Positions 1 through 6,595 of a stretch of 41,785 nt of DNA are shown here, one piece after another. A program made the translations under genes and the position numbers. Source of the DNA: a plasmid; sequence record NZ_CP090413.1, one strand, 5' to 3'. The first letter of the stretch is position 1. Each line of letters begins with the position of its first letter. A model generated the notes under the pieces. The model ran no database searches, was not told the DNA's origin, and worked only from the letters and a program-made list of their open reading frames with translations.

Positions 1-1113
1 ATGACAAAATCAACAAATTTTAATTATTATGAAGCAGATAACGTATATGGAGCCTTATTTTTCCAGTTTCCTAAGGTATTAATGTATGGCGAGCAATACA
101 AGCATTTAAGCAGTGACGCTAAATTGGCTTATATGGTACTGAAAGACCGGCTAGAGTACTCTTTGCGCAACAACTGGGTTGATGAAGAAGGACACGTCTA
201 TTTTACTTTTACCAATCAAGAACTCGAAAATTTATTTAATTGCCATAATCAAAAAGTAGTCAAAATAAAAAAAGAACTCGAAACCGCTCATTTGCTGATG
301 CAAAAACAACTGGGCTTTAACCCAAAAACAAAAAAGAATGAACCGAATCGCTTATATCTGTCCAAGCTCGATGTGAAAGCAACCGATGTCTATTTACGCG
401 GTGAAGATAGCCCAAAAGTGTCTCAAACCCTTGATACAAGCGGAAATGTGAAAATCACACTTCCGCAGGAGACTGCTCAAACCCTTGATACAAGCGGAAA
501 TGTGAAAATCACACTTCCGCATAAGTCCGTTGATGAGACCGCTCAAACCCTTGATACAAGCGGAAATGTGAAAATCACACACAATCTATATAAAGACTAT
601 AAAAATAATATAGATACTAATAGATACGATATAGATACTCAAAAGTTGGACTTTTCCACAACTAATTTTTCACCAGCTGAAATCGAAGTCCAAAATCGAG
701 ATCTAGTAAAACATGCTGATGAATTCTTAACTGACGAAGACAATGGCTTACCAGTCTTCTTGGAACCAGAAGCAGTGCAACTACTTAGCTTTTGGTGCCG
801 TACCCCGCAACAAATGCGGCGCTTTATTGGTATTATCTTAAACGCCAAATATGCTGTTGAAAAAGAACATAAAGATTTAGGCGTATGGATTCTATTAGAT
901 GACCCTGATTTAAAAAAAATGATGACCAAGACATTAAGACGCTATTTTAATGCCCTAAGAAGCGACGAGAAACATATCAAGAATGTTGAGAACTACCTGT
1001 ACGGCACCATGCAAAACCTATTTGGTGTTTGGTGGAACCAACAAGCAGCTAGAGAATATGCAGCCAAACACCCCGAAGAACAGAATCTTGGTAGCGAGCG
1101 CGCTTGGAATTAA
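1..1113 (+). CDS. repA: Plasmid replication initiator, RepA_N family
   Basis: 370-aa ORF starting at the first base of the window. The N-terminal approximately 125 aa (MTKSTNFNYYEADNVYGALFFQFPKVLMY...YLSKLDV) matches the RepA_N initiator family of Gram-positive theta plasmids. RBS aaagggag lies at window end 41769-41776, 9 nt before the ATG at 1. The central region is tandemly repeated peptide, encoded by the DNA repeats at 421-580. Confidence 0.8.
   Translation: MTKSTNFNYYEADNVYGALFFQFPKVLMYGEQYKHLSSDAKLAYMVLKDRLEYSLRNNWVDEEGHVYFTFTNQELENLFNCHNQKVVKIKKELETAHLLMQKQLGFNPKTKKNEPNRLYLSKLDVKATDVYLRGEDSPKVSQTLDTSGNVKITLPQETAQTLDTSGNVKITLPHKSVDETAQTLDTSGNVKITHNLYKDYKNNIDTNRYDIDTQKLDFSTTNFSPAEIEVQNRDLVKHADEFLTDEDNGLPVFLEPEAVQLLSFWCRTPQQMRRFIGIILNAKYAVEKEHKDLGVWILLDDPDLKKMMTKTLRRYFNALRSDEKHIKNVENYLYGTMQNLFGVWWNQQAAREYAAKHPEEQNLGSERAWN
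421..580 (+). repeat. Three approximately 40-bp iteron-like direct repeats inside repA (candidate internal origin)
   Basis: (g/t)ctcaaacccttgatacaagcggaaatgtgaaaatcacac occurs at 421-460, 475-514 and 541-580, with spacing 54 and 66 bp. It encodes QTLDTSGNVKIT three times. RepA_N plasmids are known to carry their origin inside the rep coding sequence (established knowledge). Iteron function here is inference. Confidence 0.55.
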
Positions 1114-1150
1114 AAAGCCGTGTAAGCTCATTTGAGCCGTTTTAAGTGCT
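1089..1150. repeat. Direct repeat copy 1 (3' end of repA plus downstream, approximately 62 bp)
   Basis: ggtagcgagcgcgcttggaattaaaaagccgtgtaagctcatttgagccgttttaagtgct is about 85% identical to 2337-2398. Both copies end a reading frame with ...SERAWN*/...SERTWN*. Confidence 0.7.
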
Positions 1151-1263
1151 ACATGCATAATTATTAAAATCGCTTTAAAATCGCTTAGAAGCAAAAAAAT
1201 AGGCACCTTGAGTGGCTGAATTGGTGACGACTGAACTAAGGGAATGTGAAAGGAGCTTTTTAA

Positions 1264-1461
1264 ATGACCAAATCCAGCAAAGAGGTCGAAACAATTGAGC
1301 AATTGTTGGCTGACCCATGGGCAGTCGATATTCAAGCCCTTTGGGAGCAAGCAGCCCAAAATCGAGATCCTGATAAATGCAAGCTGTTTGATGCGTTACA
1401 CACTTACCTCTTAGATAAACGCCAAGAACAAATCATCAATGAAAAGCACTTTGTGATTTAA
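1264..1461 (+). CDS. Small conserved protein (65 aa), paralog of 2893-3087; putative antitoxin or partner of the downstream Fic/Doc-like gene
   Basis: RBS ggaatgtgaaaggag upstream. The C-terminal half (KCKLFDALHTYLLDKRQEQIINEKHFV) is clearly homologous to KRKVYDALYTYFLDKRQDEVIKRKDFV in the 2893-3087 product. It lies 50 nt upstream of the Fic/Doc-like gene. Confidence 0.5.
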   Translation: MTKSSKEVETIEQLLADPWAVDIQALWEQAAQNRDPDKCKLFDALHTYLLDKRQEQIINEKHFVI

Positions 1462-1511
1462 CATAGACAGTTCAAATAATCAGTGACTGAAATAAAAAGG
1501 AGGCACAAAAT

Positions 1512-2264
1512 ATGGCTAAGACACGAACATATATGGACAAGTATAGATTCACAACTGCGGAAAACCAACGGTTTGCTCGAGCAAATTTTACCAAGTTAGT
1601 GCATACTAATGCTCGCTTTGAAGGCGTTAATACCACATTGCCACAAACACAAACTATTATGGACGGTATGAGCGTAGCAGGAGTACCTGTTGAAGATGTT
1701 TTGACGATTGTTAATTTAAAGCGTGGGTGGCAATATATCACTACTCAAAATTCCCCTTTAACGTTAACCATGGAAAAACAAATCAACAAAATTGTGGCAG
1801 CAGAAGACGCCTTAGTACCAGGAGAATTACGGCAAGGGAAAGGGGGAGTTAATTTAGGTAGTGAAGACTTTTTTGAGCCGCCTTTAATTAACGAAAAACA
1901 AGAACAATCCTTTTTACAAAAAATCTTGGCTGATCCACAAATGACGACAACTGATAAAGCATTGACTGTCATGTATCATAATATGCGCCAACAAATCTTT
2001 TGGGACGGAAACAAAAGGACGGCAACTTTAAGTGCCAATAAAATTATGATTGACGGTGGCGCTGGTTTGATTAATATCCCATTAGATAAGTGGGATCAAT
2101 GGAACGAACTAATTGCCAATTATTATCGGACTAATGACATGACTAAAGTTAAAAAGTGGACATATGATAATGGTATTCAAGGATTACAAATTCGAGCAAA
2201 CAAAGAATTAAGTGCTAATGAATTGAACCAGATGTACAAGCAACTAAAAAAACGGATGAATTAG
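1512..2264 (+). CDS. Fic/Doc family protein with non-canonical active-site motif
   Basis: Strong RBS aaaaaggagg. Contains TNARFEGVNTTL (Fic-type helix resembling the S/TxxxEG/N inhibitory motif, spacing off by one). The core reads ...MYHNMRQQIFWDGNKRTATLSANKIM, i.e. a Doc-like FxDGNKRTA motif in which the usual His two residues before F is Gln. Confidence 0.6.
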   Translation: MAKTRTYMDKYRFTTAENQRFARANFTKLVHTNARFEGVNTTLPQTQTIMDGMSVAGVPVEDVLTIVNLKRGWQYITTQNSPLTLTMEKQINKIVAAEDALVPGELRQGKGGVNLGSEDFFEPPLINEKQEQSFLQKILADPQMTTTDKALTVMYHNMRQQIFWDGNKRTATLSANKIMIDGGAGLINIPLDKWDQWNELIANYYRTNDMTKVKKWTYDNGIQGLQIRANKELSANELNQMYKQLKKRMN

Positions 2265-2336
2265 TTGAAGACGAGATTAGTAAAAGAACCCAAAACCAGC
2301 TCAAAGACTTTGCTAAAAACAATCTATCGGAATGTT

Positions 2337-2398
2337 GATAGCGAGCGCACTTGGAATTAAAACACCGTATAAGCTCATTTAAGCCACTTTAAGCCAAA
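2337..2398. repeat. Direct repeat copy 2 (relic of a second rep 3' end)
   Basis: gatagcgagcgcacttggaattaaaacaccgtataagctcatttaagccactttaagccaa. The frame upstream reads ...LLKTIYRNVDSERTWN*, which mimics the RepA C-terminus EQNLGSERAWN*. Confidence 0.7.
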
Positions 2399-2573
2399 TT
2401 GGCATAAATTATACTAGATTGTATTTTTGATTCGTCTCTGAACGCTTTAGAGGCCAAATATTAGATGCTATTGATAAAAGGGCAGCTAACATGCAGCTTT
2501 CGAAAATCTATACAATTGAACCAATACTCAAAAGGTAGTATAATGGTAGTAGTTAAGAGAGAGTGAGACAATC

Positions 2574-2855
2574 ATGGCAGTTAAGGAAAAGAAACGGGTC
2601 CAAGTCAAAATTGATAAAGACTTGGCTGATAATACGGAAGCAGTTTTAAACGAGTTGGGTCTAAATCCAACCACAGCGATTAACATGTTTTATAAGCGGA
2701 TCGTAGCGGAAGCAGCGTTACCGTTTAAACCAGCTCTGAGCGAAGCGGAAAGAGCTAATTTAGGTCTTTTAAAAGCTACTAAGGAGACACCAGTAACAGA
2801 GTTAAAAGACGCTAAAGAAGTTGCTGATTGGCTCAATGATCCAGATGAAGATTAA
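2574..2855 (+). CDS. RelB/DinJ-family ribbon-helix-helix antitoxin-like protein
   Basis: Promoter ttgaac-17-tataat at about 2516-2545, RBS agagagtgag. LNELGLNPTTAINMFYKRIVAEAALPF is typical of the DinJ/RelB N-terminal RHH. No RelE/YafQ gene follows; instead a small protein plus a zeta-like gene. Confidence 0.65.
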   Translation: MAVKEKKRVQVKIDKDLADNTEAVLNELGLNPTTAINMFYKRIVAEAALPFKPALSEAERANLGLLKATKETPVTELKDAKEVADWLNDPDED

Positions 2856-2892
2856 TAGCTTATTAGATTAAATAAATTAATAACTTGGGAGT

Positions 2893-3087
2893 GTGATTAA
2901 CATGAAAGATACAATTACAATTAATGACTTTTTTGAAATCGCCAAACAAACTGATTTGAAAGATTTACTTGATAAATCATTACATGAGCCAGATCCAGAA
3001 AAGCGTAAAGTATATGATGCTTTGTATACCTACTTTTTAGATAAAAGGCAAGATGAGGTTATTAAGCGAAAGGACTTTGTCCGTTGA
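2893..3087 (+). CDS. Small conserved protein (64 aa), paralog of 1264-1461; putative epsilon-like antitoxin coupled to the zeta-like gene
   Basis: RBS gggagtg. Its stop overlaps the TTG start of the next ORF (TTGA at 3084-3087), a translational-coupling arrangement typical of TA pairs. Confidence 0.5.
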   Translation: MINMKDTITINDFFEIAKQTDLKDLLDKSLHEPDPEKRKVYDALYTYFLDKRQDEVIKRKDFVR

Positions 3088-3764
3088 TAGATAAACCCCA
3101 ATATATTATTGTTGCTGGTATTAACGGAGCAGGTAAGAGTACGCTGTACGATACATTTCCCATATTGTTTGATAAAACAAAACGGATTAATGCTGATGAG
3201 ATTTTACGACAAATGGGTGGCGATTGGCATAAAGACAGCGATAATTTAAAAGCCATGCGTGAAGAAATAAAGTAACTACACTATTCCTTAGATAACCGAC
3301 AAAGTATTCATGTAGAAACAACACTTGCTGGAAGAGGTAAGGCTCAACTAAATTTGATTGATAAGGCGCATGAAAATGGCTTTGAAGTGACTTTATTGTA
3401 TGTTGCCCTACGAGATGAAAATTTAGCTATTAAGAGAGTAGAGGATCGGGTACAAAAGGGTGGACATGGTGTGCCATCAGAAATAATCAAAAAACGTTAC
3501 CGGCAATCAAATCATAATTTATCAGCGGTTGCGTTTAAAAGTGACAATGTTTTTATTTATGATAATAGTGAAAAATTTGTTACTGTTTATAAAAGAGAAA
3601 AAGGGCAAATAATCAAGAATGATTTAAGCCATTTCCCTTGGATAAATCAAAATATTAATTGTTCAGAAAAGGTGCAAAATCAGTTAAAAAATTTTGTAGA
3701 TCATAACCCAGAAGTTAAGCTAAAAAATAATCCTGAAAACAAAAACGATCGGCCTAGTTATTAG
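3084..3764 (+). pseudogene. Zeta-toxin family P-loop kinase, interrupted by a single in-frame TAA (3273-3275)
   Basis: ORFs 3084-3275 and 3354-3764 are in the same frame (both start positions divisible by 3). Walker A IIVAGINGAGKST lies in the first part. After the TAA the frame continues LHYSLDNRQSIHVETTLAGRGKAQ...HGVPSEIIKKRYRQ, typical of the zeta/AAA-kinase family. Either a nonsense pseudogene or a sequencing error. Confidence 0.6.
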
Positions 3765-4032
3765 GTTGATCGTTTTTGAATTTGTTCGGTTTATGCGCAT
3801 TAACGTAATTAGCAAATATTTTTAAAAGTTCTTCGGTTTGTTCGACTGATAAGTTATCAGCCTGAAAGTATTTTTCGAGTAAGGCTCCTTTTTGAATTAG
3901 TCGGCGAGAACGGGCTTTACGGGCTTGCCGATTTTCATAGTATTTAGATTGCCGTAATTTAAAATCTTCCCGCTCAATTTTTTGTTTTAAACGCGCTTGC
4001 TGTTTAACTAATTTTTCATATTGATTAGGCAT
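3754..4032 (-). CDS. Small coiled-coil protein (DUF3847-like, mobilization-associated); tandem paralog of 4055-4264
   Basis: 92 aa, K/Q/E-rich coiled coil followed by L..LS.EQ..LL pattern, shared with the neighbouring gene. Transcribed divergently from the relaxase region. Confidence 0.4.
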   Translation of the reverse strand: MPNQYEKLVKQQARLKQKIEREDFKLRQSKYYENRQARKARSRRLIQKGALLEKYFQADNLSVEQTEELLKIFANYVNAHKPNKFKNDQPNN

Positions 4033-4054
4033 GGAATTTACTCATCTCTTATGA

Positions 4055-4264
4055 TTAATGATCTACTGTCTTTTCCTTTAAAAATTCAGAAAATTGCTTA
4101 GCTAAAAGCTTAATCTGGTCATTAGATAAATTAGTATACTCTAAATTAGCTTGGCTGATAATCTGTTTACCTAGCCGTTGTTCAATTTTATATTTTTCTT
4201 CTTTAATTTTTTGGTTAAGCTGTTTTAATTTAGCTTCTTGTTTTTCTAAGTTACTTTGAGACAT
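4055..4264 (-). CDS. Small coiled-coil protein (MobC/DUF3847-like accessory), start at MSQSNLEK
   Basis: Internal Met (codon 23 of the 91-aa track ORF) has RBS ggaga 8 nt upstream. Paralogous to 3754-4032. Adjacent to the oriT-like region and divergent from mobA. Confidence 0.4.
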   Translation of the reverse strand: MSQSNLEKQEAKLKQLNQKIKEEKYKIEQRLGKQIISQANLEYTNLSNDQIKLLAKQFSEFLKEKTVDH

Positions 4265-4426
4265 GAGGATTTCTCCAATCGTTTTACAAATAATCACGGT
4301 CACTATATCATAATGTAAACGCAAAGTCAAAGTATAAAAGTTGAAAAAGCGAAGCGGAAGATCTAAACTAAATGGAGAGTTTAGGTTATCAGCAGACTGA
4401 GTGAAACGAGGTCAATGCGCACTTAC

Positions 4427-4525: not shown

Positions 4526-6595
4526 GTGACTAACATGGCAATTTTTCATATGAGTTTTAGTAATATTAGTGCTGGAAAAGGACGAAGTGCAATTGCCAGT
4601 GCCGCTTATCGAAGCGGTGAAAAATTATTTGATGATAAGGAAGGACGCCACTACTTTTATGCCCGCGCGGTTATGCCAGAAAGCTTTATTTTAACCCCAA
4701 AAAACGCACCAGAATGGGCCAGTAATCGAGAACAATTATGGAATGAAGTTGAAAAGAAAGATCGTAAATCAAACTCACGGTATGCAAAAGAATTTAACGT
4801 GGCTTTACCGGTAGAATTAAGTGAATCCGAACAGAAAGAATTACTGACAAAATATGTGCAAGAAAATTTTGTCGATCAAGGCATGGTAGCTGACGTAGCA
4901 ATTCATCGTGATCACCAAGATAATCCGCACGCACATGTGATGTTAACGAACCGACCATTTAACCCCGATGGTAGTTGGGGATTAAAAGCAAAGACGCAGT
5001 ACATTAAAGATGAAAATGGCAAGCAACTTTTAACCAAAAGTGGGTTTCCAAAACAAAGAAAAATTTGGTTGGTTGATTGGGATAAAAAGGAAAAAATTAA
5101 TGAGTGGCGAAAAAATTGGGCGTTGAGTGTTAATCAGTTCTTAGCACAAAAAAATATTCCGGATCGGATTAGTGAAAAATCGTTTGTGGAACAGGGAATA
5201 GCTGATACACCAATGCAACACGAGGGAATCAATAGTAAACGGCATGAAAGAAAGGCATTTAATCAACAAGTTAAGACCTATCGTAAGTCCAAAGCTGGCT
5301 ATAAAAATATGCAGGAAAAAGTAATTAATCGAGGTCATTTAGATAGCCTAAGTAAACACTTCTCATTTAATGAAAAAAGGTTGGTAAATGAGTTAAGTCA
5401 TGAACTGAAAACTTATATCAGTCTGGAGAGTTTAGATGATAAACGGCGTCTGCTATTTAATTGGAAAAACAGTACCTTAATTAAGCACGCTATTGGTGAA
5501 GATGTCACTAAGCAATTATTGACGATTAACCAACAAGAAAGTTCACTAAAAAAAGCAGATGAACTCTTAAATAAAGTAGTTGATCGCACGACTAAAAAAC
5601 TTTATCCAAAGCTTGATTTTGAACAGATAACCGCGGCTGAACGACGGGAATTGATTAAAGAAACTAATAGTGAACAAACGATTTTCAAAGGCAGTGAATT
5701 AAACGAACGTTTAATGAATATTCGTGATGATTTATTGACCCGACAATTATTGACCTTTACCAAACGGCCATACGTTGGTTGGAAGTTATTAATGCAACAA
5801 GAAAAGGAAGTCAGAATCAAGCTTAAATATACGCTGATGATTCATGATGATAGCTTAGAAAGTCTAGAACACGTTGATCAAGGTCTACTAGAAAAGTATT
5901 CACCAACCGAGCAGCAAAAGATTACTCGAGCAGTCAAAGATTTACGAACAATCATGGCTGTGAAGCAAGTTATTCAAACCCAATACCAGGAAGTTTTAAG
6001 AAGAGCCTTTCCTAACGGCGATTTTAATGAATTACCAATGATTAAACAGGAACAGGCCTATACAGCAGTGATGTACTATGATCCAGCTTTAAAACCGTGC
6101 AAGATTGAAACAATCGCACAATGGCGGGAAAATCCACCGAGGGTATTCAATACTCAGGAACATCAACAAGGACTAGCTTATCTATCGGGACAGCTGAGCT
6201 TAGATCAGTTAGATAATCACCATTTACAACGGGTTTTAAAGCATGACGGTACTAAACAACTCTTTTTGGGTGAATGCAAAGCCGATCCAATGATTAAGAA
6301 CAGTCAGATCGAGAAAATCCAAAAGCAGTTAAAAGAGCAACAAGCCAAGGACGACCAGTATAGAAAAGTAAATATGGGACATTATCAACCGCTAAATTAC
6401 AAGCCAGTTAGTCCAAGCTACTACTTAAAGACAGCCTTTAGTAACGCAATCATGACTGCCCTATATGCCCGTGATGAAGATTACGAACGACAAAAACAGA
6501 CACACGGCTTAAAAGAGACTGAGTGGGCAATGACGAAAAAGCAGCGGCAACACCAAACCCATAATCGGCATGAAGATGGGGGTATGCACTTGTAA
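4526..6595 (+). CDS. mobA: MobA/MobL (MOBQ) relaxase
   Basis: N-terminal relaxase domain with [31 protein letters not shown] (catalytic Tyr region) and the HxDxxNPHAHVM histidine triad ([18 protein letters not shown]). The likely true start is ATG at 4535 (MAIFHM) after ggtgac. The long C-terminal region has low similarity. Confidence 0.8.

Follow-up and report, generated by a model that had tools for sequence, protein, structure and literature searches.

The plasmid stretch analyzed here (sequence record NZ_CP090413.1; 41,785 nucleotides (nt), hereafter the window) carries two related genes for small proteins, smallA and smallB, of which the first lies upstream of a Fic-like gene and the second upstream of a zeta-like kinase gene. 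Our analysis indicates that the small proteins belong to a family that is the cognate upstream partner of divergent zeta-like kinases and most likely acts as their type II antitoxin, while the position of smallA before the Fic-like gene is a by-product of the replacement of a zeta gene; we give this reading a probability of roughly 0.6. By analogy with epsilon, PezA, and Arc1, which do so for the structurally closest kinases, the small protein would bind and block the kinase. The basic module consists of the small gene followed by the zeta-like gene in translational coupling, and in the A clade, to which positions 1264-2326 of the window belong, a Fic cassette stands in place of zeta.

All open reading frames (ORFs) described in the original prediction are present, and the paralogy claimed for the two small proteins is real and far above chance, with 38% identity over 61 amino acids (aa) between smallA and smallB (BLASTP, E = 6e-15). 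The second small ORF ends at 3087 as described, while its start is better placed at ATG 2902 (61 aa) than at GTG 2893 (64 aa), because a GGGAG site is found there and the RefSeq entries of homologues begin at the equivalent ATG. A profile search of 5.8 billion proteins recovered 328 clusters of the family, and an exhaustive hidden Markov model (HMM) search of 1.84 billion representatives recovered 70 clusters at 50% identity, across which the C-terminal motif is conserved. Members are about 59-70 aa long, share a common C-terminal end position, and follow the pattern L..L....DL..L......E.D..K..v..ALY.Y.L..RQ..vI..k.F(V/I)x; the AlphaFold2 model of smallA has three helices, with a predicted local distance difference test score (pLDDT) of 76.6. 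Neither smallA nor smallB found a match in Pfam, NCBIfam, PADLOC, or PHROGs, in keeping with the earlier view that they are paralogues of a family that could not be placed among the known toxin-antitoxin families. A weak match, P0178 (E = 8.6e-6), which has no zeta neighbor, was set aside as family evidence, being too distant to count either way.

Judged from gene neighborhoods, the zeta-like kinase is the conserved partner of the small family. In all six independent lineages (Lactobacillaceae, Enterococcus, a Streptococcus suis element, and Rothia), the small gene is spaced -4 to +2 nt from a zeta-like gene, and RelB is absent. Seen from the small protein, the distant members P0127, P0145, and P0155 each adjoin a Zeta_toxin gene (188-196 aa), directly or with overlap, in chromosomal-looking contexts, again with no RelB; seen from the kinase, the zeta-like genes of Enterococcus, the S. 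suis element, and Rothia (Actinomycetota) each have an ORF of 59-61 aa 1-2 nt upstream, which scores 46-69 bits on the small-family HMM. In the S. suis element, the pair adjoins a gene for a type IV secretion system coupling protein. The small gene comes first, with a stop-to-start spacing of -4 nt in the B clade and +1 nt in the A clade; the TTGA overlap predicted for the window (3084-3087), in which the zeta-like TTG start sits on the smallB TGA stop, was verified. The pair is a conserved, translationally coupled two-gene module and is presumably co-transcribed.

The two partners also resemble a toxin and an antitoxin in other respects. Across 10 pairs, the small protein is acidic (isoelectric point (pI) 4.3-6.6), the kinase is basic in nine (pI about 9-10), and the small protein evolves faster than the kinase, with correlated divergences (Mantel r = 0.76, p = 0.0004). 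Every locus with an intact zeta gene also has an intact small ORF (about 17 plasmid loci and six distant lineages). Zeta is often broken beside an intact small gene: undamaged copies were counted in only 4 of about 19 loci for the A type and in about 12-15 of 25 for the B type. The intact A-clade zeta genes (L012, L013, L015, and L049) are accompanied by the small gene alone, with no RelB.

The zeta-like ORF of the window matches Pfam Zeta_toxin (PF06414) with 55.2 bits against a cut-off of 22.3. It is a pseudogene because a single in-frame TAA at 3273-3275 interrupts it, at a codon that encodes Gln in intact homologues. The AlphaFold2 model of the homologue P0318 (pLDDT 89.4) has as its best matches in the PDB (Foldseek) the zeta chain 1GVN_B (E = 6.8e-8, TM score 0.66), PezT (2P5T), and AvrRxo1 (4Z8Q, E = 1.7e-6). 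Zeta, PezT, and AvrRxo1 are kinases that each have an adjacent protein inhibitor. A profile of 30 zeta-like sequences aligned with zeta and PezT at a probability of 87.5% (hhalign), with the Walker A Lys and the E-x-T motif matched: K18 pairs with K46 of zeta, E78 with E116, and T80 with T118, while the invariant E39 pairs with D67 in a register that is uncertain by one residue, since the invariant D38 is adjacent, and the C-terminal Arg residues are unaligned. In zeta, K46 is reportedly the Walker A Lys, Asp67 the base, and E116/T118 part of the substrate site. The zeta-like proteins form a divergent clade, because single sequences or small profiles fail to find zeta: a single sequence gave no match in the PDB, a six-sequence profile gave P-loop noise only, and the hhalign comparison with zeta yielded 7%. 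Based on the model and the large profile, the zeta-like protein has the zeta/PezT P-loop kinase fold.

Mapping of the window proteins onto 80 loci, with one genome per species, revealed how the Fic-like gene came to follow smallA. A single slot between repA and the DUF3847/mobQ genes occurs in three layouts, namely RelB-smallB-zeta, smallA-zeta (one nucleotide from stop to start, no RelB), and smallA-Fic; in the last, smallA lies 50 nt 5' of Fic, in about 28-40 of the 80 loci, and is mostly intact. Homology between the smallA-Fic and smallA-zeta layouts ends at the zeta ATG, 4 nt past the stop codon of the small gene, and resumes at about zeta codon 197; in at least 18 smallA-Fic loci, about 30 codons of the zeta 3' end survive between Fic and DUF3847. 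The remnants and the break and resumption of homology show that zeta codons 2 to about 197 gave way to the Fic cassette, while smallA in front stayed unchanged. In the window, ATA at 1463-1465 occupies the position of the zeta ATG in smallA-zeta loci (TAA-C-ATG), positions 1150-2326 are colinear with L007 into its zeta remnant, and the remnant reads ..QNQLKDFAKNN where the zeta counterpart reads ..QNQLKNFVDHN. SmallA is an orphan here because its zeta partner was replaced. The zeta remnant, together with a second copy of the repA 3' end (1083-1146 versus 2330-2393, 86% identical), indicates that the window is a tandem recombinant of two allelic cassettes, and both cassettes occur together in only 4 of 731 matching plasmid records.

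Several observations weigh against an antitoxin role. The small protein has no detectable kinship in sequence or fold to epsilon, PezA, or any solved protein: a 29-sequence profile aligned with epsilon at a probability of 3% (hhalign, with the epsilon sequence checked against 1GVN_A), the family profile found nothing relevant in the PDB, and epsilon and PezA were absent among the fold matches, which bears out the earlier statement that the small protein is not epsilon-like. On the side of the kinase, the C-terminal half does not align to zeta in sequence. Furthermore, most plasmid-borne copies are not beside an intact zeta gene. A tblastn search of PLSDB found a family member in roughly 700 plasmid records, about 103 of the B clade, 304 of the A clade, and 311 of the C clade, so that the expected proximity to toxin-like genes holds for only part of the plasmid-borne homologues, the C-clade copies standing alone. 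Pairwise estimates, uncorrected for phylogeny, of the ratio of nonsynonymous to synonymous substitution rates (dN/dS) are 0.15 in the A clade (including copies behind broken zeta genes), 0.12 in the B clade, and 0.09 in the orphan C clade, which suggests purifying selection on the small genes of all three clades, strong in the C clade, though such pairwise values may reflect selection older than the Fic replacement. The many conserved stand-alone copies make a zeta-independent role of the small protein possible.

The C clade is 50-53% identical to smallA, and the A, B, and C clades share 38-53% identity with one another. In five of five examples examined, all from pUCL287-type small plasmids, the C-clade gene is monocistronic, is followed by a 3' hairpin, and lies between a site-specific integrase gene and the origin (ori)-repA region, and no zeta or Fic sequence was found near it in these five. 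The backbone of these plasmids (L108, L109, and L111-L113) reads Phd-YafQ (divergent), integrase, (119-aa ORF), small gene, about 720 nt, repA, and DUF536. The C-clade gene corresponds to ORF5 of pRC18, which was labelled a protein of unknown function (PMC7117683). Two orphan A-like copies (L055, 4001-4198; L060, 3989-4192) were also observed, one by a YefM/YoeB-like pair and one 3' of a relaxase gene, with no zeta or Fic neighbor. Several module types co-reside in single assemblies, as in Companilactobacillus sp. FL22-1 (L013, L035, and L071) and S. paracollinoides (L021 and L041). Orphan copies, including the C clade, are probably kept to neutralize zeta-like toxins on co-resident plasmids, as a form of anti-addiction or immunity.

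Alternatively, the small protein may have a function of its own, either as a plasmid maintenance or regulatory factor or as a substrate or regulator of the kinase in a type VII-like manner. The wide occurrence of the C clade, with its own terminator, its low dN/dS, and its place between integrase and ori-repA, is in line with this, as are the position of the A clade directly 3' of repA and the conservation of copies behind broken zeta genes; speculatively, the conserved Thr-Tyr of the motif could be a phospho-acceptor. However, beyond the plasmids of Lactobacillaceae every copy is coupled to zeta and none lies near replication genes, no DNA-binding domain was matched in Pfam or NCBIfam, and Thr and Tyr vary among family members. 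In addition, toxin loss is known to leave orphan antitoxins behind, and we regard an independent function as unlikely. A narrower proposal, that the small protein is a replication accessory beside repA, was rejected as its primary role because the non-plasmid members are always zeta-coupled, and was retained within the independent-function explanation because of the C clade.

In the B clade, the antitoxin reading has to account for a third gene. The protein ahead of smallB was confirmed to be of the DinJ/RelB type (TIGR02384, 62.8 bits against a cut-off of 45.65; Pfam RelB, 36 bits). RelB is present only in the B-clade loci of the 80-locus map, where it heads the operon and its product has an acidic tail at the C-terminus; Pfam and NCBIfam scans found no RelE/YafQ-fold toxin after it, the next genes being those for the small protein and the zeta-like kinase. 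The RelB gene was added before the small-zeta pair in the B clade, presumably as operon repressor and analogue of omega, and may repress all three genes through the promoter-like site at 2516-2544. As had been proposed, the order RelB-small-zeta parallels omega-epsilon-zeta reasonably well. A metagenomic protein, P0122 (128 aa), is a natural in-frame fusion of the RelB N-terminal part (about residues 1-70) with the C-terminal two-thirds of smallB and apparently represents a deletion derivative of a B-type operon.

RelB/DinJ proteins are bona fide antitoxins elsewhere, and RelB could accordingly be the true antitoxin of this operon, with the small protein an accessory (chaperone, adaptor, or specificity factor) comparable to that of toxin-antitoxin-chaperone systems. 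The TIGR02384 match, the leading position and acidic tail of RelB, and the existence of the RelB-small fusion would agree with such an arrangement. Yet RelB is confined to one clade, and intact kinases that have only the small gene beside them, as found in the A clade and six further lineages, make this explanation improbable.

The original prediction had proposed that one small-protein family is reused with two toxin folds, as a promiscuous or modular antitoxin or adaptor that neutralizes both the Fic/Doc-like protein and the zeta-like kinase. Hyperpromiscuous antitoxin domains exist, the predicted 50-nt gap and ribosome-binding site AAAGGAGG before the Fic-like gene were verified, and in the Fic context smallA is mostly intact, with a dN/dS of 0.16. 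The evidence for reuse nevertheless weakens on closer view. Fic is the only non-zeta partner found for the family and occurs as such in one plasmid lineage, where the pairing arose from cassette replacement that left a zeta remnant, while zeta is the partner in all six lineages. The same smallA alleles stand before zeta or Fic, the alleles of both contexts being intermixed and the nearest cross-context neighbors differing by 1-1.5% of nucleotides, so that co-diversification with Fic is not seen. No small-family gene precedes any of three Fic homologues examined elsewhere (55-61% identity): P0238 lies behind LemA and TPM_phosphatase, P0292 stands alone, and P0304 lies behind PemI-PemK. SmallA is disrupted next to an intact Fic gene in L044 (frameshift and nonsense), L057, L059, and L065 (5' deletion), although some single-base disruptions in draft assemblies could be sequencing errors.

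The properties of the Fic-like protein point the same way. It passes the Pfam Fic threshold narrowly (25.1 bits against 24), and in its motif QIFWDGNKRTAT, Gln takes the place of the catalytic His (alignment to FICD) and Thr that of the last Arg. QxFWDGNKR(T/S)AT was found in 11 of 11 aligned sequences (the window protein and 10 homologues), with Gln161 invariant, and the protein has its own N-terminal ..RFEG.. segment at the place of the class II Fic inhibitory helix. It is unlikely that the Fic-like protein acts as a canonical toxin. A role of the small protein as a VbhA/FicA-type inhibitor was rejected, since smallA has no (S/T)xxxE(G/N) motif, no VbhA or Phd domain, and no Pfam match at E<=1. 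In Rothia, a true VbhA-Fic pair adjoins the small-zeta pair, each toxin having its own partner. Taken together, a promiscuous antitoxin seems very unlikely. Neither module of the window is a working toxin-antitoxin pair: zeta carries a nonsense codon, and the Fic-like protein, which has no catalytic His, is probably not neutralized by smallA. Least probable, and hardly to be credited, is a shared substrate or decoy, the Thr-Tyr of whose C-terminal helix both the zeta-like kinase and the Doc-like Fic protein would modify as interchangeable enzymes (type VII-like), with the small protein rather than the enzymes at the center of the system and not a simple plug-type antitoxin, which, if true, would explain the exact swap of Fic for zeta behind the small gene and the retained stand-alone copies.

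Other arrangements of Fic genes were observed among the collected loci. In Rothia aeria-type contigs (L106/L107, 676-2804), the VbhA-Fic pair lies directly upstream of the small-zeta pair, so that Fic and zeta modules are neighbors in an actinobacterium too, with separate small partners. In Ligilactobacillus salivarius contigs (L099-L101, 1901-3232), P0304 (about 55-58% identical) lies 18 nt 3' of a PemI-PemK pair, and its Fic family may have settled repeatedly just behind toxin-antitoxin operons, at their 3' ends. In Schleiferilactobacillus harbinensis-type contigs (L093-L095, 2501-3987), the chromosomal P0238 is followed 9 nt on by a second Fic-domain gene (265 aa), both being downstream of the LemA and TPM_phosphatase genes.

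The features of the window are collected in Table 1. Inside the coding region of the repA initiator, at 420-590, three tandem units of about 60 nt encode (A)QTLDTSGNVKIT(L/H)P. At the other end of the slot, a DUF3847-like gene (92 aa) faces the zeta-like gene in convergent orientation, with about 10 nt shared by the two 3' ends; beyond it come a 91-aa coiled-coil ORF and a MobQ-type relaxase gene (689 aa). The block of DUF3847, coiled-coil ORF, and MobQ, at 3754-4330 (minus strand) and 4526-6595, forms a constant right flank for every cassette type.

Table 1. Features of the repA-to-DUF3847 slot of the window.
Feature	Position	Strand	Basis
repA, replication initiator	1-1113	+	ORF call
repA 3' end and downstream; first copy of a 64-nt direct repeat marking the cassette slot	1083-1146	+	
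Candidate promoter 5' of smallA, TTGAGC-18-CATAAT, 9/12 matches (weak)	1132-1161	+	Consensus scan alone
smallA, 65 aa, A-clade member of the small helical family; orphan here	1264-1461	+	ORF and family searches
Leader of the Fic cassette, 50 nt	1462-1511	+	
Ribosome-binding site of the Fic-like gene, AAAGGAGG	1496-1503	+	
Fic-fold gene, 250 aa, non-canonical motif QIFWDGNKRTAT; cassette in place of zeta	1512-2264	+	
3' remnant of the displaced A-type zeta gene (about 36 nt)	~2290-2326	+	Colinearity with L007
Copy 2 of the repA 3'-end repeat; junction to the RelB-type cassette	2330-2393	+	Repeat search, blastn
Candidate promoter 5' of relB, TTGAAC-17-TATAAT, 10/12 matches	2516-2544	+	Consensus scan
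RelB/DinJ-family ribbon-helix-helix protein, 93 aa	2574-2855	+	TIGR02384, Pfam RelB
smallB, B-clade member, 61 aa from ATG 2902 (64 aa from GTG 2893); putative antitoxin	2902-3087	+	
Zeta-like P-loop kinase gene, 226 codons; pseudogene here	3084-3764	+	Pfam Zeta_toxin, translation
Hairpin between the convergent zeta-like and DUF3847 genes, inverted repeat with 17-nt arms; likely bidirectional terminator	3740-3778		

Compared with known systems, the small-zeta module is closest to omega-epsilon-zeta of pSM19035 and PezAT of Streptococcus pneumoniae, with which it shares the zeta/PezT kinase fold and a small, helical, acidic protein coupled upstream and, in the case of omega-epsilon-zeta, a ribbon-helix-helix gene in front (B clade) and a plasmid location by replication functions. 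Unlike these systems, the small protein has about 60 aa rather than the 90 aa of epsilon and is unrelated to epsilon or PezA; the first gene belongs to the RelB/DinJ family, not to omega, and its likeness to omega lies in the ribbon-helix-helix fold; and the kinase, at 188-229 aa, is shorter and shares only 12-18% identity with zeta and PezT, the window copy being a pseudogene. AvrRxo1-Arc1, a zeta-fold NAD kinase with an adjacent inhibitor, was among the top structural matches and likewise joins such a kinase to a dedicated small partner, but Arc1 is encoded downstream and is unrelated, and AvrRxo1 is a secreted effector with extra domains. The class I Fic pairs (VbhT/VbhA and FicT/FicA) and Phd/Doc resemble the smallA-Fic arrangement in the small upstream ORF and the Doc-like ..DGNKR.. 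core; the smallA-Fic arrangement differs from them by the Gln and Thr substitutions, the missing inhibitory motif in smallA, and the unconserved pairing. RelBE/DinJ-YafQ has its RelB here, but without a RelE/YafQ toxin. Finally, the stand-alone copies resemble orphan antitoxins and anti-addiction modules, in which antitoxin-like genes persist under purifying selection without a toxin in cis and module types co-reside, although identity between the A, B, and C clades reaches only 38-53% and cross-neutralization among them is putative.

Zeta-family genes of lactobacilli and other Gram-positive bacteria have often been described as having no antitoxin: in one study none was detected (PMC6662855), and orphan pezT/zeta toxins were noted in a review of PezAT (PMC10532202); the small ORFs have been treated as hypothetical and the zeta genes as antitoxin-less (PMC6662855, PMC10478331, PMC10532202). 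The literature searched on COG4185, on NetFlax and zeta, and on zeta toxin in lactic acid bacteria contained annotation-level mentions only. The logic of epsilon-zeta is known; what is new here is an antitoxin candidate, unrelated to epsilon, for a remote zeta clade, while a modular antitoxin for two folds is not supported. A partner of about 60 aa, labelled hypothetical in roughly 700 plasmid records, is thereby assigned to the zeta genes of this clade. The assignment may be of use in annotation, in judging which addiction modules are live on Lactobacillaceae plasmids, and in choosing stabilization parts for food-grade vectors. The slot between repA and mobQ also offers an example of cassette turnover in plasmid maintenance, in which a toxin was swapped, toxins decayed, antitoxin-like genes were kept, and one clade spread independently; the retention of antitoxin-like genes fits plasmid-plasmid competition by anti-addiction.

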